A DNA stretch of 54,039 bases. Source: a virus. Lineage: Duplodnaviria > Heunggongvirae > Uroviricota > Caudoviricetes. Shown here piece after piece: positions 2,874 to 45,294 of this stretch; position 1 is the stretch's first letter; each line of letters opens with the position of its first letter. The stretch lies in IMG/VR virus record IMGVR_UViG_2541047747_000003; one strand, given 5' to 3'. The position numbers were made by a program, and so were the translations under genes. The notes under the pieces were generated by a model, which ran no database searches, was not told where the DNA came from, and saw only the letters and a program-made list of their open reading frames with translations.

Positions 2874-3080
2874 TTACACAATACGCATTGTGTTTCGTAA
2901 TTCCCCGCGCAGCGCCCGCAGCGCGTCACGCATTGGTACAAAAAACCGGTTAAATTTTACGTGTTTATATTTCCGCATTAGTGGCGGTGTATAAACCATC
3001 GCGCCGCAAGAATTGCATGGGAAACGGAAATGTGATTCATCAATGAATGTTTCAACTGAATAAAAGATTACACGTTTCAT
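2874..3080 (-). CDS. Hypothetical protein (Cys-containing)
   Basis: 68-aa ORF overlapping the stop of the upstream gene. Confidence 0.4.
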   Translation of the reverse strand: MKRVIFYSVETFIDESHFRFPCNSCGAMVYTPPLMRKYKHVKFNRFFVPMRDALRALRGELRNTMRIV

Positions 3081-3634
3081 AATTCCAACCCAGTTTCACC
3101 ATTAAGTTTTTCGATCTCAAATACTGGTTTATCCGGCAGCAGGCCGTTATTTTTCCGGTATTCATTCAGGCGGCTGTCAAAATCAAACGCGAGATCATTA
3201 GCGTGACCAAAGCGACCAGGTTTAAACAGTGAGTAAAAATTAAGGCCGTGTTTATTGGTATCTATGCAAAGCGTTTCATCCAGCACCATTAAACGCAGCG
3301 TGCGCGAAAGGTAATTCAACGGAATGCCAGTTTCCGCGCTAATATCTCTCATTCGCTTTCTAACGTTGTAGCCAGTAAATAACGCGGCTACACGCTCGCG
3401 TCGTTGTTCGTATAAATATTTAATTCGATAGCCCAGCAAGCGGCGGCGCGGGCCAAAATATGTATACACCCGCTCAACCAGATTAGTGTCGATCAGGTGT
3501 TTAACTGTTTCCGGCAAGCATCCGGCTTCGTCGTATTCCGCTGATAATCCGGTTTTCTGGCGTAGCTGGTGCATTGTTGCGATGCCATCAAGTTCAAGGA
3601 TATTGATAATTTTTGATTCAAGTTCAATGCTCAT
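3077..3634 (-). CDS. Hypothetical protein, probable winged-helix DNA-binding
   Basis: 185-aa ORF immediately downstream of the helicase gene in the same operon. Confidence 0.5.
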   Translation of the reverse strand: MSIELESKIINILELDGIATMHQLRQKTGLSAEYDEAGCLPETVKHLIDTNLVERVYTYFGPRRRLLGYRIKYLYEQRRERVAALFTGYNVRKRMRDISAETGIPLNYLSRTLRLMVLDETLCIDTNKHGLNFYSLFKPGRFGHANDLAFDFDSRLNEYRKNNGLLPDKPVFEIEKLNGETGLEL

Positions 3635-3713
3635 TGTTTTTTCGCCTCGTTTTAAGCGCGAAAACAGCCACCAGAAAGCGGTAAACTTTCCGGTAAGCCG
3701 TTTCTCAAGTTAA

Positions 3714-5129
3714 TTAAAAAGATGAGTTTGTCTGGTTATTTCGCTGGGAGAATCGGCTTGTCGCCTGACGTTGTTGCATTGACTGGATACACGCGGACGC
3801 CGCGCGGGCCTGGTCGCATGGTAAAATGTTGCCGTTATCATCAAACCGCTGGTAAACAGTACCCGTTTTCCCGTGACGGTTTTTTGAAACGATGATCTCC
3901 ATGTACTCGCGGGCAACTGATTGTTCGTTGTAGTAGCCGTCGCGGTAGACCATGATGATCCTGTCTGCGTCTTGTTCCAGATTGCCGGAATCACGCAGAT
4001 CAGAATTGTTAGGGCGCTTGTTCGGTCGTTCCTCAACGCGGCGGGATAACTGAGCCAGCGCAGCCACTGGCACGCGCAACTCTTTCGCCATCATTTTCAA
4101 TGACCACGACAATTGCCCTACAGCGAGATCGTGACGTTCTGCCTTAGCTAGCTTCATTAACCCGATGTAGTCAATCATTACCATACCCAGGTTGGGATAA
4201 TCCTGCTTCATTCGTTCAGTTGTGGCGCGTATTTCCTCGACAGTTAACTGTGATGCATCAACAATCCACACATCGAGATCAGCAAGTGCGCTCATTCCCT
4301 GGGCAACGTGCGCCCATCCTTCGTCATCCAGTTTTACCGGATTACGTAAGCAATCCGTTGACAAGTTCCCTGCGCCAGCGATAGCGCGTTCAGTCATCTG
4401 ATCGAGCGACATTTCAAGCGTGAACAGCAAAACGCCGACCCGCTGACCTTCTCCGCCAGGGTATTGTCGTTCAGCAGCCGCGCGGGCAATTGCCAACGCC
4501 AACGCCGATTTACCAGACCCTGGGCGTCCGGCGATAAGCACCAGATCAGTAGCGTTAATGCCGCCTAACATTTCGTCGAGTGGGTCAATCCCTGTTTTGA
4601 TGTTGTCAGAGTTCACGCCACACTCCATGCGTTTACTTAGCACTTCCGTGTATTCCTGGACAGCATCGCGCAACAGCACCGGGATAATCTGATCTTTTGT
4701 TACCTTTAATTTTGAATACCGGGAATCAAAATCTTTCATCGTCTCTTTGACGACCTCAAGTGTCCCAGTTTCCAGTTTGTAGCGCATATCGTCGATGAGT
4801 TCCAACATCTGCCGCCGCTGGTGCTCTTCACGTAGTAGCTGTGCATATCCCTTCAGGTTGGCAGCAGAAGGGCACGATCGCGCCGTTTGCATTAGCGGTA
4901 CAAAGTTTTCATTACCAATCTCATCACCAACCAGTAACGCGTCGATAAGATTTCTGTTTCTGGCTTGCGCCCGGATAATTTCAAAAGCCCGCTTATATAG
5001 CGGAATAGTGAATACTTCAGGATCGAGCGTAGCAAGAACGTCTTGCGCGTTAGGTGTAAGCCCGCCTAACAGGAGTCCGCCTATCACAGCAGACTCTCGT
5101 TCTTGTCGCAGTGAGTTAACAGAATCCAT
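3714..5129 (-). CDS. Replicative DNA helicase (DnaB-like)
   Basis: 471 aa; Walker A GRPGSGKSALAL, DnaB-type N-terminal domain and RecA-like C-terminal core. Confidence 0.85.
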   Translation of the reverse strand: MDSVNSLRQERESAVIGGLLLGGLTPNAQDVLATLDPEVFTIPLYKRAFEIIRAQARNRNLIDALLVGDEIGNENFVPLMQTARSCPSAANLKGYAQLLREEHQRRQMLELIDDMRYKLETGTLEVVKETMKDFDSRYSKLKVTKDQIIPVLLRDAVQEYTEVLSKRMECGVNSDNIKTGIDPLDEMLGGINATDLVLIAGRPGSGKSALALAIARAAAERQYPGGEGQRVGVLLFTLEMSLDQMTERAIAGAGNLSTDCLRNPVKLDDEGWAHVAQGMSALADLDVWIVDASQLTVEEIRATTERMKQDYPNLGMVMIDYIGLMKLAKAERHDLAVGQLSWSLKMMAKELRVPVAALAQLSRRVEERPNKRPNNSDLRDSGNLEQDADRIIMVYRDGYYNEQSVAREYMEIIVSKNRHGKTGTVYQRFDDNGNILPCDQARAASACIQSMQQRQATSRFSQRNNQTNSSF

Positions 5130-19098: not shown

Positions 19099-19283
19099 CA
19101 ATGAAAAACGAAATTAAAGATCTGCAAATAGATATTCAGCGCGACGAGCATGATTTGGAAACTGTACGACAAATACAGGTTTTCCACATGCGAGAATTGC
19201 TTGCGCTTAAAGAGCTTGAAAGAAAGCTAGTGCAATCAATATCTGATCGCAAAAGACTGGTTGCACGTTACGGGGGTAAATAA
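19089..19283 (+). CDS. Hypothetical protein
   Basis: 64-aa ORF, coiled-coil-like, coupled to neighbours. Confidence 0.45.
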   Translation: MVVTMKNEIKDLQIDIQRDEHDLETVRQIQVFHMRELLALKELERKLVQSISDRKRLVARYGGK

Positions 19284-20005
19284 TGAATTTGGAATCTATT
19301 CTTAAATTCCACCTCCCAAAATCACCGCGTTTGTCAGATGAAAGCCGGGGCACGTCCCCAGACTCGCTTAATACTACTGATGCACTAACCGCAGCAGGTA
19401 TGGCGCAATCGCGCGTAGAGCTTGGTTATAGCGCTTTTTTAGGGAAGATGGAACTGTCGCAAGCCGAAAAACACAGGGCCGTAGTTTTGCTTACAGAGCG
19501 TTTAAGAGCTATGGCAAAAGATTACGAATACGTCATGGAGCTGGACGAGGACAAACGCAATGATCTTATTATTCTTGTTGCCGTTTTCGCGTTTCGGGAT
19601 TACTGCCAGAGTGCCGCGACAGAAAAAACTTGTATGGATTGCGGCGGATATAAATTTACGTTTGACGACTACGGAGAAAAACACCTTTGCAAAAAATGCA
19701 AGGGGCATGGAAAAGTTCGCAATCATTGTAAACAATGCAAGGGCCGTGGCGAAGTACCGGATAAAGCAGCCAGCGAAGCGGCGGAAATGCCAGTGTTCAA
19801 AACGTGCCAGCATTGCGGCGGGCGCGGGTACTCGCGTTTCCCTGTAGATCTTGTCCGGCAGGCGGTTAATCAGCTTGTTTTCCCGGTAAGCCGATCAACG
19901 TGGTGGAAGAAATACCGTGCTTTCTATGAAGACGCCATTACTGAATTGTTCAAAGAAGAGGCGCGGGCTGATAACGAAATTAAACTAGTGACACGGGGTG
20001 AATAA
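19283..20005 (+). CDS. Cysteine-rich zinc-finger protein with four CxxCxGxG repeats (possible Q-like late antiterminator)
   Basis: 240 aa; CMDCGGYK, CKKCKGHGK, CKQCKGRGE, CQHCGGRGY; sits after ninG-rusA, the usual Q position. Confidence 0.45.
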   Translation: MNLESILKFHLPKSPRLSDESRGTSPDSLNTTDALTAAGMAQSRVELGYSAFLGKMELSQAEKHRAVVLLTERLRAMAKDYEYVMELDEDKRNDLIILVAVFAFRDYCQSAATEKTCMDCGGYKFTFDDYGEKHLCKKCKGHGKVRNHCKQCKGRGEVPDKAASEAAEMPVFKTCQHCGGRGYSRFPVDLVRQAVNQLVFPVSRSTWWKKYRAFYEDAITELFKEEARADNEIKLVTRGE

Positions 20006-25610: not shown

Positions 25611-25811
25611 ATGTTCGACAGAATACGGGAGGCGTGCGCGTATGTGACCGGGGCCGTAACTGCTTTTTTCGGCGCGATAACCATTAATGATATTGCTGTC
25701 TTTGTGGGTATCTTATCAACCATAGGCACATTTGCCGTTAACTATTACTTCAAATCACAGGAGAACAAGCGAGCGCAAGAGGAACACGACGCGCGAATGG
25801 GGAATAAGTAA
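25611..25811 (+). CDS. Putative holin
   Basis: 66 aa, immediately upstream of the endolysin; hydrophobic segments then a charged C-terminus; RBS GGAGGAAAA. Confidence 0.55.
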
Positions 25812-25812
25812 C

Positions 25813-26304
25813 ATGATTAGCCAATCGCTGAAGAATAAAATTATTGCTGCGGCGGCTGGTGGGGCGATCGCTATTGCGGCTGTGATGGTTAAACCATTAG
25901 AGGGCGTGGAGTACGATCCTTATCGTGATGTTATCGGTGTATGGACTGTTTGCTATGGTCACACCGGAAAAGACATCATGCTTGGTAAGACTTACACGCA
26001 ATCAGAATGCGATACTTTGTTAAACAAAGATCTCCACAAAACCGCAAAAGCGATTAACCCATATATCAAAGTCGAAATATCAGATTTTACCCGCGCTGCG
26101 CTTTATTCATTCGCCTATAACGTAGGCGCAACCAACTTCAAAACATCAACCTTATTAAAGCTACTCAATGACGGTAAGAAATCAGAGGCGTGCGCACAGC
26201 TTAAACGCTGGGTATACGCTGGTGGTAAGAAGTGGCAAGGCCTGGTAAACCGCCGAGATGTTGAATATGCCGTTTGCGAATGGGGTGAAAAATGGACAAG
26301 GTGA
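25813..26304 (+). CDS. Endolysin, GH24 lysozyme with N-terminal signal-anchor-release (SAR) domain
   Basis: Catalytic block [23 protein letters not shown] (E-D-T triad context); N-terminal Gly/Ala-rich weakly hydrophobic SAR-like segment [17 protein letters not shown]. Confidence 0.85.
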
Positions 26305-26762
26305 AGACGTTAATCATCGCCGTTGTTGTTTGCATTATTGCCGGGCTGACCGCCGTAACGTGTTATTACCAGGGTGAGGCGGCAAGGTTACAGGAAGAAG
26401 TCACGGTGACGAAAGGCGCACTAAAAACAGCAAGTAACACTATCCAGCAGATGAAGGAGCGAAACGCCGAACTGTCAAAACTTGATAAGAGGTATCACGA
26501 TGAGATTAAAGCTATCAGATCTGACATTGCCGATCTGCGCACTGGCATTGATAACGGCACTATCAGGCTGCGCATCAACGCAATGCCCGTGCGAGTGTCT
26601 GACCCAGCCGGAACCGTCCGCGCCATTGATGGAGCCGCCTGTAGACTCACTCCCGACGCTGAATCGGCTTATCTATCCCTCAGAGAACAACTGAAAACGA
26701 AAGATGCCCAAATTATCGGGTTGCAGGACTACATAAAAACACAGTGCTTACGCAAAGAATAA
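26292..26762 (+). CDS. Rz-like i-spanin
   Basis: N-terminal transmembrane helix, coiled-coil periplasmic domain; directly follows the endolysin. Confidence 0.7.
26500..26694 (+). CDS. Rz1-like o-spanin lipoprotein (embedded in the Rz +1 frame)
   Basis: Lipobox LSGC, proline-rich mature region; entirely nested in the Rz gene. Confidence 0.6.
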   Translation: MRLKLSDLTLPICALALITALSGCASTQCPCECLTQPEPSAPLMEPPVDSLPTLNRLIYPSENN

Positions 26763-27090
26763 CAGTGCGTGGGCGTGTCGCCGTTTCTGCCAGCCAGCCA
26801 TGACCGGGCCAATCCTTACCGCGAGCGACGGCAGAAATTCAAAAACACGTAATACCGGATGCACGTCATCCCATTAACAGGTCCGGCGCTACCTGGGTAG
26901 AAGAAAGCGCCATTACTCACCTGCCATGCGTAGGACGAGCGCCAGGATCTGTTTACCAGAGATGTTGAGCAGGTCCAGTTTTATAAAATTCTGTAAACGG
27001 TACTCACACAGCGCCGTTTTCAGTGTTTTATGTCATTCCTGCCGCTGTATAAACAGGAAGTAAAAGCAAACCAGACAGGAGATTATTCTG

Positions 27091-37557: not shown

Positions 37558-38034
37558 ATGTCTCAGACTTGCGAAAAAGGCACGTTTACAGGCCGTGACG
37601 TTGCTGTATTCTTCGCTATCGCTTGTCCAAATGCGAAGCCGGAATCTGGAGCGTACAAAGCGTTAGGCATGATGCGTGGTAAAACACTTTCCGTTGAATG
37701 GGAAACCGCTGACGCCACCGCCGATAAATCAGCCGATTACACGAAAGAATCAATGGTTACTTACAAATCCGTTTCTTTCTCCGGCGACGGTGTGTCCCGC
37801 ACTGAAGAAATCCATAATCAGAAAGCGCTGAAACGCCACGTAATTACGCCAGGTGAAACCACCGGATCACAACCTTATGTATGGCTGAAGATCGTTTCTC
37901 CTGTAGACGTAACTGAAGGCCCATTCCTTTGCACTTCCTTTAAAGAAGAAGATCCGCATGATGATGTTTCCACCTGGTCTATTGAGTGCGAAAGCGCTGG
38001 CAAGGTAACGGTAGGCGACGTTCCGCCAGCATAA
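37558..38034 (+). CDS. Major tail (tube) protein
   Basis: 158 aa with strong RBS AGAGGTAAATTAACATG, followed by a terminator; position before the chaperone and tape measure. Confidence 0.6.
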   Translation: MSQTCEKGTFTGRDVAVFFAIACPNAKPESGAYKALGMMRGKTLSVEWETADATADKSADYTKESMVTYKSVSFSGDGVSRTEEIHNQKALKRHVITPGETTGSQPYVWLKIVSPVDVTEGPFLCTSFKEEDPHDDVSTWSIECESAGKVTVGDVPPA

Positions 38035-38078: not shown

Positions 38079-38089
38079 AGGTGAATACT

Positions 38090-38788
38090 ATGATCCATGT
38101 TCGTACAGGACAATTTGCTGCCGTGGTGAACGGTAAGCGCTATGAGTTTAATCCTTGCTTTGCTGCGATGGCTAAAATCGGCAACGATAGTGAGCTTGTC
38201 GAATATTTCGCACTTATCCACGGCGGCAAATATCCATCACGATTGCCAGCAGATCCAGACCTACGCAATCGCATTCTGGCGCGGTGTTATGGTGAAATAG
38301 TTCAGACATCAATGCACATCCTGAAATGTTGCTCAGACGACGAAATAGGCCCGTTATTGGGCGAATGCTGGTTTACTCCTTCGGGTAAGTTAAAGTTAAA
38401 GCCCGGATTAATGCCGATCGAGGATATCATCACGCTTGCGCAGCACTGCATGTACCACGGTCTTATTGGTGATGGCCCGGAAGAAGAGTCCGGGGAAATC
38501 CCGGAAGGGGAATATAAGCCGACTTTTAACGTCCTTGAATTCGTCTATTCTGCCGTTGCTCACCTGGGCTTGTCAGAATCGGAAGCATGGAATATGACAA
38601 TGACCGGATATAGGGCCGCTGTACGCGCTAAAACGCCGCCAGACGAAAGAAACGAGAAAAGCAAGCCAAACATTCACATAAATAAACGTGCTTATGACGA
38701 GCAAATGGAGGCCGCTAAAAAGGCACTAGAAAGAATGAAAAATCGTGAGCAAGAAAAGCCCGGTAGATCCGGGCGTTTTGCTAATTGA
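38090..38788 (+). CDS. Putative tail assembly chaperone
   Basis: Start chosen at MIHVRTGQF; positional call between tube and tape measure; no frameshift site identified. Confidence 0.45.
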   Translation: MIHVRTGQFAAVVNGKRYEFNPCFAAMAKIGNDSELVEYFALIHGGKYPSRLPADPDLRNRILARCYGEIVQTSMHILKCCSDDEIGPLLGECWFTPSGKLKLKPGLMPIEDIITLAQHCMYHGLIGDGPEEESGEIPEGEYKPTFNVLEFVYSAVAHLGLSESEAWNMTMTGYRAAVRAKTPPDERNEKSKPNIHINKRAYDEQMEAAKKALERMKNREQEKPGRSGRFAN

Positions 38789-39155
38789 AATCTTTAATTG
38801 CTGTACCTGGTGAACTGTGTGTGATTGTATTGTATACAGACTTTGCCTTACTGCGATCTTTCCATTCTTTTAGGATGCAGTTATCAAACTTTGCGATAAC
38901 CCTTGAAGGGGATAATTCTTCAACATCCATGTAAGTAAATCCTATCGTGCTGGTTACTGAATACCATACGTGATAACTATAATTACCGTCATGCTCGATT
39001 CTTTGTGGTTCCCCCATTATTTTATTCACTTGCTCACAAGTCATTCCAACTTGCAAATTTTTATCAGCTAACTTAACGAAATCAGTTGATCTTGCGCACC
39101 CTGTAAGAGCTAAAGCCATAACACCAATGAGAACCGCTTTGATTATTTTTTTCAT
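38781..39155 (-). CDS. Lipoprotein with BamE/SmpA-OmlA-like domain (accessory gene)
   Basis: Signal peptide plus lipobox LTGC; LQVGMTCEQVNKIMGEP resembles the BamE fold signature; AT-rich; opposite strand to the tail genes. Confidence 0.6.
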   Translation of the reverse strand: MKKIIKAVLIGVMALALTGCARSTDFVKLADKNLQVGMTCEQVNKIMGEPQRIEHDGNYSYHVWYSVTSTIGFTYMDVEELSPSRVIAKFDNCILKEWKDRSKAKSVYNTITHSSPGTAIKDFN

Positions 39156-39165
39156 GATTTACCCC

Positions 39166-39825
39166 TTAATTCCAGTTGCAAGCGTTTTTCACTTTGTCGA
39201 TGTGGTTATAAAGACCATCAATGTTAAACACTGCTTTCTCAATGTCGCCAGCTTCCGGCACTACTTCAATGATGAATTGTTTTTCGTTAACCAGTTTTTT
39301 AATCATTGGGATGGCTTTTTTGCCGTCCCATAATCCAAGAGCTTTATAATTAGTTGACCGCCACCACTCAGTAGCTACAGCTTTGTGAACGCCGATCCGG
39401 TAGTTAATATAAGTAGTGTCCCCGGCGTCAGTTACATGGTGTGACCATGCTACGAACATTTTTGTTTTATTACCCTGGCAAGCGATTGTTAATACCGGTT
39501 TATTCTTATCCTGTGCCTTCAGTGTCGGGAAAGCATCAAGACTTCCGCTGAATTGTTCTGCTTTCACAAAAAGGAATACGTTTTTTGCGTCCTGCATATC
39601 ATCTTTTCTTTCAACTACAAGCCACTGTTTACCAGCATTTTCTTTTTCTAACTGTGCATCGTATGCGGCTTGTTTTGCTTGTTGTTCTGCAAGCCATTTA
39701 GCATTTTTCTCTGCTAATGCTTGTTGCTCTTGATTGGTCACTATAGGCGCTTTTTCATTATCCTCATTGCAACCAACCAGACCCAATACCGCCGCAATCA
39801 TTGCCACTTTTGCTAACCGTTTCAT
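39166..39825 (-). CDS. Lipoprotein (accessory gene)
   Basis: 219 aa; signal peptide with lipobox LVGC; Gln/Ala-rich linker; opposite strand to the tail genes. Confidence 0.6.
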   Translation of the reverse strand: MKRLAKVAMIAAVLGLVGCNEDNEKAPIVTNQEQQALAEKNAKWLAEQQAKQAAYDAQLEKENAGKQWLVVERKDDMQDAKNVFLFVKAEQFSGSLDAFPTLKAQDKNKPVLTIACQGNKTKMFVAWSHHVTDAGDTTYINYRIGVHKAVATEWWRSTNYKALGLWDGKKAIPMIKKLVNEKQFIIEVVPEAGDIEKAVFNIDGLYNHIDKVKNACNWN

Positions 39826-39872
39826 AACCCACCACGCTAACTTGATTTACTGACCATTCCCTTTAGCTTCCT

Positions 39873-39912
39873 TATACAAAATGGAGTCGTTGAAGTAAAG
39901 CCATTTTGTATA
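39873..39912. promoter_or_regulatory. Perfect 12-bp inverted repeat TATACAAAATGG / CCATTTTGTATA with 16-bp spacer
   Basis: Intergenic, between the divergent lipoprotein gene and the tape measure gene; a copy pair of the dispersed motif. Confidence 0.6.
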
Positions 39913-39952
39913 AAATAGATACACAGATCACATTTTTGCATGAGGTTAAATC

Positions 39953-42295
39953 ATGGCTACCAGTGTAGGTACAATTTATTACGAAGTTGATGCGAAAACT
40001 GGTCAACTTCTCGTTGCACAACGACAGGCAGACCAGGCCTTTGATCGTATAGAGCGCGGCGCAAAACAGGCTGACCGCCAGGTAAACACCCTGAAAACAT
40101 CCATCAAGGCACTGACCAGGGTTATCCATCTGCTAATTGCTGCGGAGGCTGTGCGCCAATTTATGGATATGGCGGAGCAAGCAAAAATGCTTCGCGTAAA
40201 AATCAAAATGCTTACGGGCGATGCGGAGTCCGCCGGACGGGTTTTCGACGGCCTGAAAGCAATATCCAGGGAGACGGGGCAGAGCCTGAAAGATACTGGC
40301 GAATTATGGCAAGGCCTGGCTATCTCACTAAAAAACACCTCCGCTACGGAAGGGCAATTGCTTAACCTGGTTGGCACTATTCAGAAAATGGGTGCATTAG
40401 GCGGCGCGTCAGCGGAACAGATGTCTAACTCAATGCGTCAATTCCGTCAGTCTATCGACGGCGGTGTTCTTCGTGCCGAAGAATTTAACAGCCTGCTTGA
40501 AAATACGCCGACCATCGTACAAACAATGGCCCGCCATATGGGATTATCAATGGGCCAGTTCCGCGCCGAAATGCTGGACGGCAAGATCACGGCTGAAAGG
40601 ATGGTTAACGCAATACAGGCGGCTACGCAGGAAACAAACGATAAGTTTGCTCAGTTGCCGCGCACATCCGGCATGGCTATCAATGAGCTTAAAGTAGAAA
40701 TTATGGGCCTTGTTGAGCAGTTGGATGATCTTTTTGGCGTGTCAGATGGCGTTGTTTCAGCTATCGACTTGATCACGAAAGGCGTTAAAGGGCTTGGCGA
40801 TGGCGCTAAATTCGCTAAAACCTGCTTCGACACACTCAAAACGGCTGGTAGCGAATTTATCGACATGTTTGATGATGTGGCTGTTAAGGCTGGAGAGGTG
40901 GCAGAGAAGATCATCGCAATGGTGACGCCAATCAAGGCGCTAATGGATGGCTATAAATGGATGAAGGAGGTAGTAGGAGAGCAAACCGACGAATATAACA
41001 GCAACTACGAGAAGAAATACGGGAAGACCGTTGGCAAGGTCATGCAACTACAGGATGATCTGACCGCAGCAATCCAGGCTACAGAAGAAGCAAGGAAAAA
41101 TGAACAGAATGCTGCCAATGACGGAGCGATTACCGGATTCGACAAGCCAGTAGACAAGCCGAAAAAACAGAAAAAAGAGAAGAAATCGGAAGCTGATCGG
41201 CTTGGTGACAAAGGTATAAGCGTTTCTGATCAGTACAACAAAGACGCCGCCGCCATGCGCAAAGCGTTGGAGAACGGCAAGGCCATTGATGCTGCATTTG
41301 CCCAGGGTAAAATCACGCTCCTTGAGTACCGCGCCGCGCAAAAAGGGATCGGCAAGGAACTGAAAGAAGAATTAGCACAAATTCCGGTAGATGAATTGCG
41401 TGATAAATGGTCACAAATAGTAAGCCCGATGGATCAGCTAAAAGGCGAAGTTGACCCCATCCAGCAGGCGCAAAATGAATGGGCCATCCGTAAGCAAATG
41501 CTTATAGACCTGGGCGCTACTGAAGCGCAACAGAAACAGGAATTGTTAGCCTATGAGCAACAGATCCGCGATCTGAAATGGGAACAATGGCAGGCGCAAA
41601 GCGACACAAACGGCCTTATCGGTGATTGTGTTAATGGCCTTAAAGGCGGAATGAGTAATGCGCTTGTTGGCCTGTTAAACGGCACTCAATCATTGAGTGA
41701 TGTTTTTGCTAACTTAGGAAGCAATATACTCGGCAATATCGGTAACAGACTCTCAGACATAGCTGCAAACTGGATAGCAGATCAGATCATGATGGAGACA
41801 CAAAGCAAGGCCACGCAAACAAGTACAACAGCAAGCGCGGTAGCAGCTCAGGGAAGCATTGCTGCGGCGGCGGCCCCAGCAGCGGCGGCAACTGCGGCGT
41901 CAACTGGCGGTAGCTGGGCGGCGGCTGGTTCGGCGGCGCTCACTGCGATCATGTCGCTGGCTACGTCAATTTTCGGCGGCGGTCGCTTTAATGGTGGTAG
42001 CGTCATTGGTGGTAATATGTACCGCGTAGGGGAACACAACAGGCCGGAGCTATTCCAGACATCTAACGGCAATCAATATATGATCCCTGGCGAGAACGGC
42101 AGAGTTATTCCGGGTCGTGATATTGGCGGCGGTGGCGGTATTAGTATGCCTGTCAGTATCAGCATTCAGACCACGAACGGATTCAGCGACGAAGACAGCC
42201 GCAGACTTGAATTAACAATGGAACGTGTAGCCATGAAAATGATAACAAGGGAATCTCAAAGACCAGGCGGAATGTTGCAACCTCGCCGCAAATAA
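39953..42295 (+). CDS. Tail tape measure protein
   Basis: 780 aa, largely alpha-helical and low-complexity, Gly-rich C-terminal region; canonical position. Confidence 0.85.
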   Translation: MATSVGTIYYEVDAKTGQLLVAQRQADQAFDRIERGAKQADRQVNTLKTSIKALTRVIHLLIAAEAVRQFMDMAEQAKMLRVKIKMLTGDAESAGRVFDGLKAISRETGQSLKDTGELWQGLAISLKNTSATEGQLLNLVGTIQKMGALGGASAEQMSNSMRQFRQSIDGGVLRAEEFNSLLENTPTIVQTMARHMGLSMGQFRAEMLDGKITAERMVNAIQAATQETNDKFAQLPRTSGMAINELKVEIMGLVEQLDDLFGVSDGVVSAIDLITKGVKGLGDGAKFAKTCFDTLKTAGSEFIDMFDDVAVKAGEVAEKIIAMVTPIKALMDGYKWMKEVVGEQTDEYNSNYEKKYGKTVGKVMQLQDDLTAAIQATEEARKNEQNAANDGAITGFDKPVDKPKKQKKEKKSEADRLGDKGISVSDQYNKDAAAMRKALENGKAIDAAFAQGKITLLEYRAAQKGIGKELKEELAQIPVDELRDKWSQIVSPMDQLKGEVDPIQQAQNEWAIRKQMLIDLGATEAQQKQELLAYEQQIRDLKWEQWQAQSDTNGLIGDCVNGLKGGMSNALVGLLNGTQSLSDVFANLGSNILGNIGNRLSDIAANWIADQIMMETQSKATQTSTTASAVAAQGSIAAAAAPAAAATAASTGGSWAAAGSAALTAIMSLATSIFGGGRFNGGSVIGGNMYRVGEHNRPELFQTSNGNQYMIPGENGRVIPGRDIGGGGGISMPVSISIQTTNGFSDEDSRRLELTMERVAMKMITRESQRPGGMLQPRRK

Positions 42296-42381: not shown

Positions 42382-42636
42382 TCACTTATGAGTGCCTTTC
42401 ACGCCACATAACTTGTTATAGGCACGGTGCTCAACAATTAACCAAACCTTCAAATCTTCGCTAAACAGCCTCCAATCAAGATTGATATCCATTTTGTATC
42501 CGTAACCGTCGCGTAACTTTTTGGGGTAAACTTCTTTTCTCAGAAAGGCTTTAAGTAATTCCTTACCTTTCTTGATGATCCGGTCCTGTGCGTTTTTCTG
42601 TGCTTTCAGATTTCTGTCAATCGCTACCAGTTTCAT
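42382..42636 (-). CDS. Possible RelE/ParE-like toxin (84 aa), low confidence
   Basis: Small basic protein; C-terminal hydrophobic strand ending in HR (VWLIVEHR) resembles the RelE/ParE C-terminus; GGGGTGAG RBS; follows a 50-aa ORF. Confidence 0.35.
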   Translation of the reverse strand: MKLVAIDRNLKAQKNAQDRIIKKGKELLKAFLRKEVYPKKLRDGYGYKMDINLDWRLFSEDLKVWLIVEHRAYNKLCGVKGTHK

Positions 42637-42659
42637 AACTCACCCCATCATCCTTAGTT

Positions 42660-42812
42660 AAGTGCCTTCAGGAAGAAGTCCCGGTATTCATCTTCTTTCG
42701 CATTCATCATGAATTGACCGTATTTGAATGCGTCGTCGAAACCCTTAACGATTGCTATTTCCACTTGTTCGAATGCGTTATTTAGCATTACTACTACATA
42801 GCGTTTCATTTT
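42660..42812 (-). CDS. Hypothetical small protein (50 aa), possible antitoxin partner
   Basis: Hand-translated MKRYVVVMLNNAFEQVEIAIVKGFDDAFKYGQFMMNAKEDEYRDFFLKALN; upstream of and close to the 84-aa ORF. Confidence 0.3.
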
Positions 42813-42976: not shown

Positions 42977-43330
42977 ATGCCGGAAGTGTTCAGATGGACG
43001 CCGCAAAGAAGCTACAGCGTGACCAGGAAGCCAGACGTATCTGTTGTTAAGCTGGGCGATGGTTATGAGCAAAGACAGGTAAAAGGTATCAATCCATTGC
43101 TTGATAGCTACACCCTGGTGTTTAAAGGCAGTAGCGCCGGATGTGGTGATGGTGGAAACGTAGCAATCCAGGCGGAAGCATTCTTGAGGGCGCGCGGCGC
43201 GGTCGAGGCTTTTTACTGGTCGCCGTCAATGGATAACGTGCAAAGGCTTTTTGTCTGTCGGCAATGGAGCATGACTAAAGACGGGCCTTTGTACACGCTA
43301 AACGCAACGTTTGAGCAAGTTGTTGGCTAA
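42977..43330 (+). CDS. Minor tail protein (lambda M-like)
   Basis: 117 aa; first gene after the tape measure, conserved lambda tail-tip gene order. Confidence 0.65.
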   Translation: MPEVFRWTPQRSYSVTRKPDVSVVKLGDGYEQRQVKGINPLLDSYTLVFKGSSAGCGDGGNVAIQAEAFLRARGAVEAFYWSPSMDNVQRLFVCRQWSMTKDGPLYTLNATFEQVVG

Positions 43331-43683: not shown

Positions 43684-43932
43684 CTATAAGTTATCACGCA
43701 GATAATTAACGCCCTTATCAGTGACGAATGAATGGTTAACCTGGTTTTCATCCGTCATGATGATGAATAACTTTTCATGTAGGTATTTCGCTTTCGGGTA
43801 CAGCGTTAAACAGACCTGGTACAGTATCCCGCGCTCAATCAGCAAATCAATAAATTCGTGTTCATGATAACCGATGAGGCGGGCGGCCTGTTTCAACGTG
43901 TACACATAATCACCGTGATTGCGCCGCCCCAT
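43684..43932 (-). CDS. Hypothetical protein (accessory gene, minus strand)
   Basis: 82-aa ORF last in a three-gene minus-strand cassette. Confidence 0.45.
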   Translation of the reverse strand: MGRRNHGDYVYTLKQAARLIGYHEHEFIDLLIERGILYQVCLTLYPKAKYLHEKLFIIMTDENQVNHSFVTDKGVNYLRDNL

Positions 43933-43941
43933 GTTGCCGCC

Positions 43942-44289
43942 TTATTTATCGAATGCTGAAAGGTTATCGATACAGAAATCTTTCGCCGCTTTTTCGTATT
44001 CGCGTTTTGCTTCTGGATCGTCAGCCGGGAAACCTTTTGCGTGTATTTCACCAGGGCAAGACTGGTCCATAGAATCTGCATAATAAGCAGTGAAGCTACC
44101 ATTAATATCTTTCGGGTTCATATCTTCCACCTCATCAACTATCTGTACCGGATTAGCAGCATATTTCACTGGATGGCCTAAACTACATTCAAGAATCCTG
44201 CCTTCTTCCAGGGCTACTTCTTCGCTATCAAATAATCCGAAACACTCCTTGCTACCACTTAACCACACATCAAGACTGTATTTTTTCAT
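43942..44289 (-). CDS. Hypothetical protein (accessory gene, minus strand)
   Basis: Start chosen at MKKYSLDVWL with a GAGG RBS. Confidence 0.4.
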   Translation of the reverse strand: MKKYSLDVWLSGSKECFGLFDSEEVALEEGRILECSLGHPVKYAANPVQIVDEVEDMNPKDINGSFTAYYADSMDQSCPGEIHAKGFPADDPEAKREYEKAAKDFCIDNLSAFDK

Positions 44290-44458
44290 TTTTGTTAGCC
44301 TCATATTTGACAGGTTCGATCTGGTATCCCAAAAGGCGGTCATCCTCAGCAAGTAAAAGCGCGTCAACCAATGCTTCACCCTCGTCGTCATACAGGGCGA
44401 TAACCTTTTCCCTACCGTCTGTCATGAATACCGTCAACTTCCATAGCTTTTCAGTCAT
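44270..44458 (-). CDS. Hypothetical acidic protein (accessory gene, minus strand)
   Basis: Start chosen at MTEKLWKL with a GGAGGTG RBS; dispersed-motif copy immediately upstream. Confidence 0.45.
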   Translation of the reverse strand: MTEKLWKLTVFMTDGREKVIALYDDEGEALVDALLLAEDDRLLGYQIEPVKYEANKNEKIQS

Positions 44459-44587
44459 AACGCACCTCCGCGCCATTTTGTTAACTATGCTTCCGTTTGA
44501 GTAAAATATACATATTGTAAAAACCGCGATCAATCCATTTTGGTATGATTTAGCGTGACGCAGATCACAGAATGACAAGGTGAGAAA

Positions 44588-45292
44588 ATGCGCAATATTC
44601 CGAGAGAAATGATTATTGATTCCGTCGATGCCGGAGTCGGCGCGGTAATTGACTTGTTTGAATTAGACCTCACGCCCCTGGGTGGCGAGGTTATCCGCTT
44701 CCATTCCGGCGTGAATGGCTATTACGGCCCGGTTATCTGGAAGGGGGTGGCTTACAACAGCTACCCTATCGAGGCCACTGGCTTCGAAATGAAAAACGAG
44801 GGTGTCTATTCACGCCCGCAAATGGTTGTAGCCAACATTGGCGGCCTAATCACCGGGATGAATAACGATTTCAACGACCTGCGAGGAATGAAAGTTACAC
44901 GCCGCCAGGTGGAAGTAAAATACCTGGACGCCATCAACTTCCCCAACGGCAACCCGGATGCAGATCCGTCTATCGAGGCGGTGTCTTTTTACGTCGTTGA
45001 GGCGATGAGCGAAGAAACAGCCGACCAGGTGCAATATGAGCTGTCAACGCCAATTGATGCTGACAAGGCGGTTATCCCAGGGCGCACAATCCTTGCTGAC
45101 GTTTGCCAATGGCAATATCGCGGCGACGGTTGCGGATACAGTGGCGGCCCTGTAGCTACTGATAAAGACGAATCGACCAGCGATCCAAAGCTGGATAAAT
45201 GCAGCCACCGCCTGAGCGGTTGCCGTTTACGTTTCCCGCGCCCGAATCCGTTACCAATTTCATGTTTCCCAGGATCGAGCAAGGTGGGTTGA
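44588..45292 (+). CDS. Minor tail protein L
   Basis: 234 aa with lambda gpL-like size and position, C-terminal cysteine cluster (CQW...CGY...C..C). Confidence 0.75.
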   Translation: MRNIPREMIIDSVDAGVGAVIDLFELDLTPLGGEVIRFHSGVNGYYGPVIWKGVAYNSYPIEATGFEMKNEGVYSRPQMVVANIGGLITGMNNDFNDLRGMKVTRRQVEVKYLDAINFPNGNPDADPSIEAVSFYVVEAMSEETADQVQYELSTPIDADKAVIPGRTILADVCQWQYRGDGCGYSGGPVATDKDESTSDPKLDKCSHRLSGCRLRFPRPNPLPISCFPGSSKVG

Positions 45293-45294
45293 TT

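Follow-up and report, generated by a model that had tools for sequence, protein, structure and literature searches.

Tail-module morons encoding envelope exclusion proteins are already well known, and some phage lipoproteins, such as Llp of T5, exclude phages at the level of the receptor and have a role in protecting progeny. Gp15 of HK97, the product of the founding and archetypal moron, is expressed by the prophage and directed to the envelope, and it prevents genome entry while leaving the receptor unblocked (PMC3594210); Cor of phi80, N15, and mEp167 is also an exclusion factor (PMC3594210). In the mEpimmI group of coliphages, Lpp021 and Lpp010 are proven exclusion lipoproteins that act against phages using OmpA or LamB (PMC11893012). 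SDIC4B, from the Serratia SDIC4 system, was reported to have a VasI-like fold and to provide 10- to 200-fold phage protection alone, outside type VI secretion system (T6SS) clusters (bioRxiv 10.1101/2024.01.28.577318). Here we describe two minus-strand genes in the tail module of IMG/VR virus record IMGVR_UViG_2541047747_000003 (54,039 nucleotides [nt]; "the window" refers to this whole stretch). Both encode lipoproteins, the larger of which belongs to the VasI family; the genes have been annotated but not studied.

HK97 gene 15 occupies the same position as the operon in the window, but gp15, a small YebO-like inner-membrane protein, is neither a lipoprotein nor related in sequence, whereas the window has two genes, both encoding lipoproteins and both on the opposite strand. 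Like the window products, Lpp021, Lpp010, Cor, and Llp are classical-lipobox lipoproteins encoded in the structural gene cluster. Lpp021 and Lpp010, however, are 72 to 82 amino acids (aa) long, are encoded directly after J, and covary with receptor use; the window lipoproteins are distinct from Lpp types A and C described for that group of phages, which are 72 and 82 aa long and lie after J. The window locus and SDIC4 are both small operons of secreted envelope proteins, but SDIC4 carries signal peptidase I signals instead of lipoboxes, its genes are chromosomal and sit in a defense island beside BrxR, and the gene order is reversed. Both SDIC4 proteins have cleavable signal peptides (we took their sequences from the preprint's plasmid table), and SDIC4, too, works in the periplasm.

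Two lipoprotein genes inserted in the tail module

The window is a complete Escherichia coli prophage whose integrase end adjoins dgcM and whose tail-fiber end adjoins zntB. Over the queried region it is 100% identical to prophages in several E. coli genomes; its kin are the mEp021-like (mEpimmI) coliphages mEp013, mEp044, mEp554, mEp010, and MagusPhagus. An earlier reading of the sequence (here, the original prediction) had proposed two AT-rich minus-strand lipoprotein genes with lipoboxes LTGC and LVGC, and the open reading frames (ORFs), GC content, lipobox scan, and RefSeq coding sequences, which include the same two genes, all agree with it (Table 1). GC content is 0.37 to 0.42 over positions 38750 to 39950, versus 0.47 to 0.52 in the flanking tail genes. 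Ten nucleotides separate the stop of the larger gene from the start of the smaller, whose 3' end overlaps the convergent DUF6246 gene by 8 nt. Both genes are preceded by a Shine-Dalgarno-like G-rich run; GGTGG lies 5 nt before the ATG of the larger.

Both products carry canonical lipoprotein signals, which we defined as a positive n-region, a hydrophobic h-region, and the lipobox [LVI][ASTVI][GAS]C: MKRLAKVAMIAAVLG-LVGC in the larger protein and MKKIIKAVLIGVMALA-LTGC in the smaller. The lipobox cysteine is invariant among homologues of the larger protein; among those of the smaller, at least 90% have it, and the one sequence without it is a fragment truncated at the N terminus. A six-frame scan of the window for a charged N terminus, a hydrophobic stretch, and a lipobox returned, besides these two genes, a 52-aa ORF with a GTG start antisense to J, which is implausible as a lipoprotein gene. 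Pairwise ratios of nonsynonymous to synonymous substitution (dN/dS) of 0.20 to 0.35 for the larger gene and 0.10 to 0.16 for the smaller show that both are under purifying selection and thus are real, maintained genes.

The original prediction placed the genes between a tail chaperone gene and a tape measure gene. The latter is confirmed by its TMP_3 domain; the former is a DUF6246 gene, which is labeled "tail chaperone" from its position only. Its product is 234 to 235 aa long in the window versus 226 aa in most relatives, so insertion of the cassette seems to have remodeled the DUF6246 C terminus. The terminator hairpin at the end of the smaller gene encodes, in its plus-strand copy, the final DUF6246 codons (…PGRSGRFAN; positions 38758 to 38788).

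We used the Hendrix definition of a moron. The two genes are extra DNA between genes that are adjacent in related phages (the interval is ≤159 bp in 13 of 19 distant relatives), they deviate in GC content, they have their own terminator, and a candidate promoter lies in the conserved region upstream. The proposal that they are accessory rather than tail genes is therefore well founded, given their foreign composition, terminator, promoter-like upstream region, variable slot, and lipoprotein signals. Taking moron and lipoprotein anatomy together, we are highly confident that they form a two-gene moron operon, antisense to the late operon, in a cargo slot of the tail module.

Table 1. Features of the lipoprotein operon and its surroundings (positions in the window)
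Feature	Positions	Strand	Description and basis
Tail tube gene	37558-38034		Flanking tail gene
DUF6246 gene	38081-38788	plus	Left border of the slot; Pfam DUF6246, 2.2e-54; phrog_791
Intrinsic terminator	38748-38774	minus	Hairpin GCCCGG-ATCTA-CCGGGC, then TTTTCTT; 6 nt past the stop of the smaller gene; terminator scan and sequence reading
Small lipoprotein gene	38781-39155	minus	ORF, 124 aa; N terminus MKKIIKAVLIGVMALALTGC then ARS; lipobox LTG then C20
VasI-domain lipoprotein gene	39166-39825	minus	ORF, 219 aa; N terminus MKRLAKVAMIAAVLGLVGC then NED; lipobox LVG then C19
VasI domain of the 219-aa protein	39172-39663	minus	Residues ~55-218
Helix of the 219-aa protein			Residues 31-63; single helix, 33 residues
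Signal peptide and lipobox of the 219-aa protein	39769-39825	minus	Coding positions
Intergenic control region	39826-39952	minus	Alignment of 14 loci with different cargo, and sequence
Candidate sigma-70 promoter	39894-39899 (-35); 39871-39876 (-10)	minus	TTTACT, 17-nt spacer, TATAAG
Perfect 13-bp inverted repeat	39872-39884 and 39901-39913		TTATACAAAATGG / CCATTTTGTATAA; 16-nt variable loop
Tape measure gene	39953-42295	plus	Right border of the slot; 780 aa; Pfam TMP_3, 1.1e-49; phrog_1538

The larger protein is a divergent VasI-family lipoprotein

The original prediction was right that the larger protein is a lipoprotein but overlooked its VasI identity: residues 55 to 218 match the Pfam VasI profile (PF11319, positions 25 to 184 of 184) with 58.1 bits, above the cutoff of 26.5, and the precomputed Pfam annotation of its homologues is concordant. 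The name given by RefSeq and its annotation pipeline (PGAP) is "type VI secretion system-associated protein TagO"; the score against the NCBIfam TagO/VasI equivalog, TIGR03360, was 47.4 bits, short of its cutoff of 124.2. Word-indexed homologue searches yielded few distant relatives, and the family became visible through an exhaustive profile search of representative clusters, in which 2018 clusters matched VasI at E ≤ 1e-3. Since only about six of these reach E ≤ 1e-30, the window protein represents a branch that is small and divergent within a large family.

Of the best 150 VasI representatives, nearly all open with a signal peptide, a transmembrane (TM) segment, or a lipobox. Residues C116, T121, R143, C216, and W218 are invariant in two diverse alignments, and the C-terminal ACxW of the family is found in the window protein; judging from these residues, the domain would be a disulfide-bonded periplasmic one, with a probable Cys116-Cys216 disulfide. 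In most canonical members, the P2-like and Brucella phage BiPBO1 copies among them, the signal peptide is followed by at least one C..RLxCYD motif. No such motif is present in the window protein, which instead has a lipobox followed by a long helix.

Direct sequence searches of the PDB gave no match at E ≤ 10 for either the larger or the smaller protein. From structural modeling, we infer that the VasI domain is a periplasmic β-sandwich, similar to IalB and the N-terminal domain of MotY, that is carried on a lipid anchor and the 33-residue helix. The larger protein is 7 to 10% identical to IalB (PDB 3dtd) and 8z5n_A, and function is not transferable from either. Chain 8z5n_A, probably the N-terminal domain of MotY, comes from a flagellar LPHT-ring structure, in which it is listed as part of the sodium-driven polar flagellar motor.

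Unrelated temperate phages repeatedly carry VasI genes at positions expressed in the lysogen. In P2-like phages the gene lies between ogr and int, with a gene for a zinc-ribbon membrane protein ahead of it, and in Brucella phage BiPBO1 it lies directly downstream of a CI-like repressor gene. In P88_4B11 (gp36-gp37, positions 2936 to 4166 of locus L007) and NC_049343.1 (gp37-gp38), a zinc-ribbon protein with multiple TM segments is followed by VasI; the P2-like VasI protein is secreted, is 297 aa long, and has three C..RLxCYD repeats. Some VasI representatives (P0038, P0136, and P0161) have zinc ribbon, TM segments, and VasI fused in one chain, and these arrangements suggest that zinc-ribbon/TM plus VasI is a conserved two-part membrane module.

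A BamE-like fold is predicted for the smaller protein

The 124-aa protein matched phrog_18614 at 8.9e-64. The BamE-like segment noted in the original prediction is upheld at the level of fold, by Foldseek, but not by sequence: the Pfam BamE profile (PF04355) scored 18.9 bits against a cutoff of 23.2, over residues 33 to 51 only. The protein also fell below the cutoffs for Pfam DUF7738 and for OsmE (NF008423; 17.8 versus 65). Its AlphaFold2 model (predicted local distance difference test score of 74.5 overall, >90 in the core) packs two helices against an antiparallel sheet and was matched by Foldseek to many BamE chains and to OsmE, BLIP, and BtiO (probability 0.9 to 1.0, TM score 0.4 to 0.58 by target length, E ~1e-2); we assign it a BamE-type α-α-β-β-β fold with moderate confidence, as judged from this model. 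The protein shares this fold with BamE, OsmE, and BLIP of the SmpA_OmlA superfamily and is lipid anchored like BamE and OsmE (4dm5), but adds a C-terminal tail and a conserved cysteine pair (Cys40 in at least 90% of homologues, Cys93 in all). Nothing points to its joining the β-barrel assembly machinery (BAM) complex through BamA or BamD. The cultured phage mEp013 has a copy that is 82% identical, in the same slot, and an unrelated siphovirus has a 29%-identical "SmpA/OmlA" gene among the morons that follow its tape measure gene.

These family assignments bring up a role connected with the T6SS, in which the proteins would protect the periplasm as orphan immunity-like factors or the VasI lipoprotein would modulate a host T6SS. 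Many T6SS immunity proteins are periplasmic lipoproteins, and the model of the smaller protein matches BtiO, a T6SS immunity protein of Bacteroides fragilis (9uu1, probability 0.99). Pfam VasI was first described in T6SS clusters, for example vasH-vasI-tssA of Vibrio cholerae (PMC5371669), and the PGAP name TagO points the same way. We nevertheless find a T6SS role improbable. The window protein shares the domain, by sequence, with T6SS VasI/TagO (V. cholerae VCA0118; PF11319, TIGR03360), and both are extracytoplasmic, but T6SS VasI/TagO is a soluble periplasmic protein, whereas the window protein is a lipoprotein with a helical spacer, lies outside any T6SS locus, scores well below the equivalog cutoff, and lacks the C..RLxCYD of most T6SS- and P2-type members. 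No T6SS gene is present in the 54-kb window, and homologues occupy the same phage slot. VasI is not known to act as an immunity protein, its role being listed as unknown, and both of the distant family members that we looked up lie outside T6SS loci. As for BtiO, a BamE-like fold is generic among small lipoproteins.

Cargo of the slot differs among related phages

For a census of the slot, we gathered 76 viral contigs via the DUF6246 protein, together with phage and genome loci, and catalogued the interval between the DUF6246 and tape measure genes. Cargo of 650 to 1280 bp was present at every one of the 52 loci whose DUF6246 identity is at least 68%. At 49 of these 52, at least one minus-strand ORF of the cargo has a predicted signal peptide, lipobox, or TM segment, an envelope-targeting class that we assigned by our own heuristic. 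Counting the window, the most frequent cargo is a secreted protein of 116 to 141 aa (21 loci), followed by the VasI lipoprotein (19 loci) and the small lipoprotein (13 loci). The others are a 100-aa protein with two TM segments (8 loci, 7 of which have a 35-aa ORF alongside), a 106-aa protein without a signal (7 loci), a secreted protein of 165 aa, and a lipoprotein of 245 aa (1 locus each).

The two window genes had been presented as if they formed a functional pair, but they assort independently. The VasI lipoprotein is accompanied by the small lipoprotein at 10 loci (including the window) and by the unrelated 106-aa protein at 7, and is alone at 2; the small lipoprotein is also found beside an unrelated secreted protein at 3 loci and beside a 59-aa membrane protein in mEp013. 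Because the partners differ among loci, we regard the genes as independent modules, and an obligate two-protein system is ruled out.

Turnover of this kind bears on whether the cassette instead serves lysogenic conversion, that is, host fitness or virulence gained through the outer membrane as serum resistance, adhesion, invasion, or stress tolerance. The models would be Bor (a lipoprotein) and Lom of lambda, and IalB, which the larger protein resembles in predicted fold, has been reported in Bartonella invasion. At 8 to 10% identity, however, the IalB match is uninformative on function; the slot swaps many unrelated envelope proteins in ordinary gut E. coli phages, a pattern more typical of phage-phage conflict; and the precedents by position (HK97 gp15) and by group (Lpp021 and Lpp010) are exclusion factors. 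We consider conversion unlikely, though it is the strongest of the alternatives to phage exclusion.

A control region shared by all cargo classes

In an alignment of 14 loci with different cargo, a stretch of ~107 nt beside the start of the tape measure gene is conserved whatever the cargo class. A candidate sigma-70 promoter lies within this region, its -10 element being TATAAG in the window and TATAAA in most relatives. A consensus promoter scan called none in the upstream intergenic region; it missed this candidate because the last base of the -10 is G. Cargo proteins with different mature domains also share the N terminus MKRLAKVAM..., which, together with the common upstream region, suggests that cassettes are exchanged downstream of a shared control region. 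At the other end, the depositors of mEp021, mEp044, and mEp013 annotated terminators at the place equivalent to that of the window terminator.

Three further elements of this region were observed. The perfect inverted repeat is kept in every relative regardless of cargo; one arm contains the candidate -10, and the loop contains the -35. The repeat could serve the moron promoter as an operator, or it could form a hairpin in the late mRNA immediately ahead of the ribosome-binding site of the tape measure gene; the predicted folding of such a hairpin was not significantly better than that of shuffled sequences (z, -1.46). An invariant TGTGAT (positions 39927 to 39932) lies ~60 nt upstream of the inferred start, and its likeness to a CRP half-site is speculative. 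Many relatives (for example, loci L013 [mEp021], L003, L025, L002, and L024) have between the control region and the first cargo gene a conserved 27-aa ORF, MKNVNYRPNEHERYADFIEEMLKALKK, with a strong Shine-Dalgarno sequence; it is not in the window and is unannotated in the phage records seen.

The orientation of the operon also bears on a possible function in the lytic cycle. The proteins might act as a spanin-like lysis component, given that outer-membrane lipoproteins serve as o-spanins and that a very weak PHROG match to an Rz-like spanin was obtained (E = 0.089), or they might inactivate the receptor on lysing cells and so save progeny from debris, in line with the progeny-protecting role of T5 Llp. 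Both are highly improbable: the genes are antisense to the late operon and are missing or replaced in the viable close relatives mEp021, mEp044, and MagusPhagus, and a complete holin/lysozyme/Rz-like cassette lies at positions 25727 to 26885. Spanin function in particular was rejected on account of that cassette and because the PHROG match is confined to the signal-peptide region.

Possible function in superinfection exclusion

We favor superinfection exclusion, or envelope-level phage defense more broadly, as the function of the operon, and judge by analogy that the chances of this being correct are about even. Several precedents make it the best reading: HK97 gp15 at the same position, Lpp021 and Lpp010 in the same phage group, VasI genes in other temperate phages, the reported protection by SDIC4B, and the envelope-targeted cargo of the slot.

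The opposite orientation of the genes had been taken to imply their expression in the lysogen. Orientation alone does not imply it, but a scheme can be proposed from the control elements. In the lysogen, with the late operon silent, the sigma-70 promoter in the conserved 107-nt region would drive a bicistronic mRNA ending at the terminator. During lytic growth, late transcription antiterminated by Q (gene annotated at positions 19173 to 19895) would continue past the hairpin in its plus-strand form, whose T tract is poor, and run antisense to the cassette. Both preproteins would be exported by Sec, lipidated at Cys19 and Cys20, respectively, and sorted to the inner leaflet of the outer membrane, as the E. 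coli +2 rule predicts from Asn (larger) and Ala (smaller) at position +2. Homologues have D, R, G, or E at this position, so the membrane of residence may not be critical and localization may vary.

Once anchored, each protein might act independently as a periplasmic binder that guards the lysogen from incoming phages. Held by the helical spacer, the VasI β-sandwich would sit several nanometers into the periplasm, where the domain could bind an incoming tail-tip or tape measure component or the periplasmic face of a receptor; the smaller protein, likewise, may display its BamE/BLIP-like domain as a protein binder. The block would then fall after adsorption, by hindering tail-tip or tape measure penetration and DNA delivery or by engaging the receptor from its periplasmic side. 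Masking of outer-membrane receptors, put forward in the original prediction, found no direct support, nor is the cargo strictly coupled to the receptor-binding domain of J.

A number of observations weigh against exclusion as the function. The candidate promoter, which matches the consensus at 9 of 12 positions, was spotted by eye in the conserved alignment. Among contigs with a J receptor-binding domain at least 98% identical to that of the window, VasI cargo is present in 9 and other cargo in 2, while two full-length VasI-bearing contigs do not have this domain; the presence of VasI cargo in 9 of the 12 contigs that share the window J tip is an enrichment probably due to relatedness. Nor is cargo type tied to tape measure type, since VasI cargo occurs with tape measures of 780 and 957 aa that are 32% identical over their first ~200 residues only. 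We thus found no strict coupling of cargo to either the J domain or the tape measure. The window proteins share no sequence with Lpp021 or Lpp010, and their genes adjoin the tape measure gene rather than J. In an hhalign comparison of SDIC4B with VasI, probability was 0.3 over 17 columns, and SDIC4B had no Pfam match, so SDIC4B has no detectable sequence similarity to the VasI profile and the link between them depends on the fold claimed in the preprint. PADLOC defense models did not match. The two distant VasI family members that we looked up are both encoded among housekeeping genes, and the domain may therefore serve general envelope physiology. Finally, according to a 2026 review of T6SS accessory factors, the role of TagO/VasI is unknown even in the T6SS itself (PMC13584744).

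A wider proposal, to which we give little credence, combines three ideas: that the VasI domain is a general periplasmic interceptor of tail-like injection machines and stops the tail tip or tape measure of a rival phage; that phages deploy it as a lipoprotein, as a soluble protein, or in a zinc-ribbon/TM-anchored form; and that T6SS VasI/TagO is the same module, acting on the T6SS membrane complex or on incoming spikes.

Other cargo in the window

The tape measure gene is followed directly by a second moron (positions 42382 to 42809, minus strand), which encodes an 84-aa ParE-like toxin (PF24732) preceded by a 51-aa ORF, the two probably forming a toxin-antitoxin pair. The toxin moron is also found in relatives (loci L009, L011, and L012). 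A third antisense island (positions 43762 to 44998, minus strand), between minor tail genes at 42977 to 43330 and 45128 to 45832, contains five small ORFs, one of them a KilAC antirepressor-domain fragment. The tail module of this phage group is thus broken by at least three antisense cargo slots.

After J (positions 46513 to 51483), a small minus-strand ORF (positions 51523 to 51825) reads, from an internal Met, MKKLIVACILSALSFGAFA then SVN, and would encode a secreted protein that is not a lipoprotein. It fills the post-J slot that holds the proven exclusion lipoproteins of mEp021 and mEp010 (gp81 and gp116) and is a candidate receptor-level exclusion factor. For the gene at positions 30667 to 32046, which directly follows the large terminase gene and occupies the portal position, RefSeq gives the name "anti-CBASS protein Acb1 family protein"; this name may be an artifact, because the gene sits in the head module.

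Implications

What is new here is the recognition of a genuine VasI-family lipoprotein in a phage moron, the definition of the slot as a cargo site that is always occupied in close relatives and has a shared control region, and the link drawn to phage defense with a VasI-like fold. Because it occurs here in a simple two-gene phage context, the VasI domain is amenable to plating assays. If the lipoprotein does exclude phages, VasI proteins defined by sequence would be linked to the VasI-like-fold defense of SDIC4, and the RefSeq name "type VI secretion system-associated protein TagO" would be misleading for prophage copies. If, moreover, VasI does intercept injection machines, the cassette would provide the first tractable assay for the T6SS accessory family VasI/TagO. 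Prophage morons that remodel the envelope decide which phages gain access to gut E. coli, a matter that bears on phage therapy and on prophage-driven competition between strains; the slot, in a prevalent group of gut coliphages, is a ready source of candidate entry blockers.

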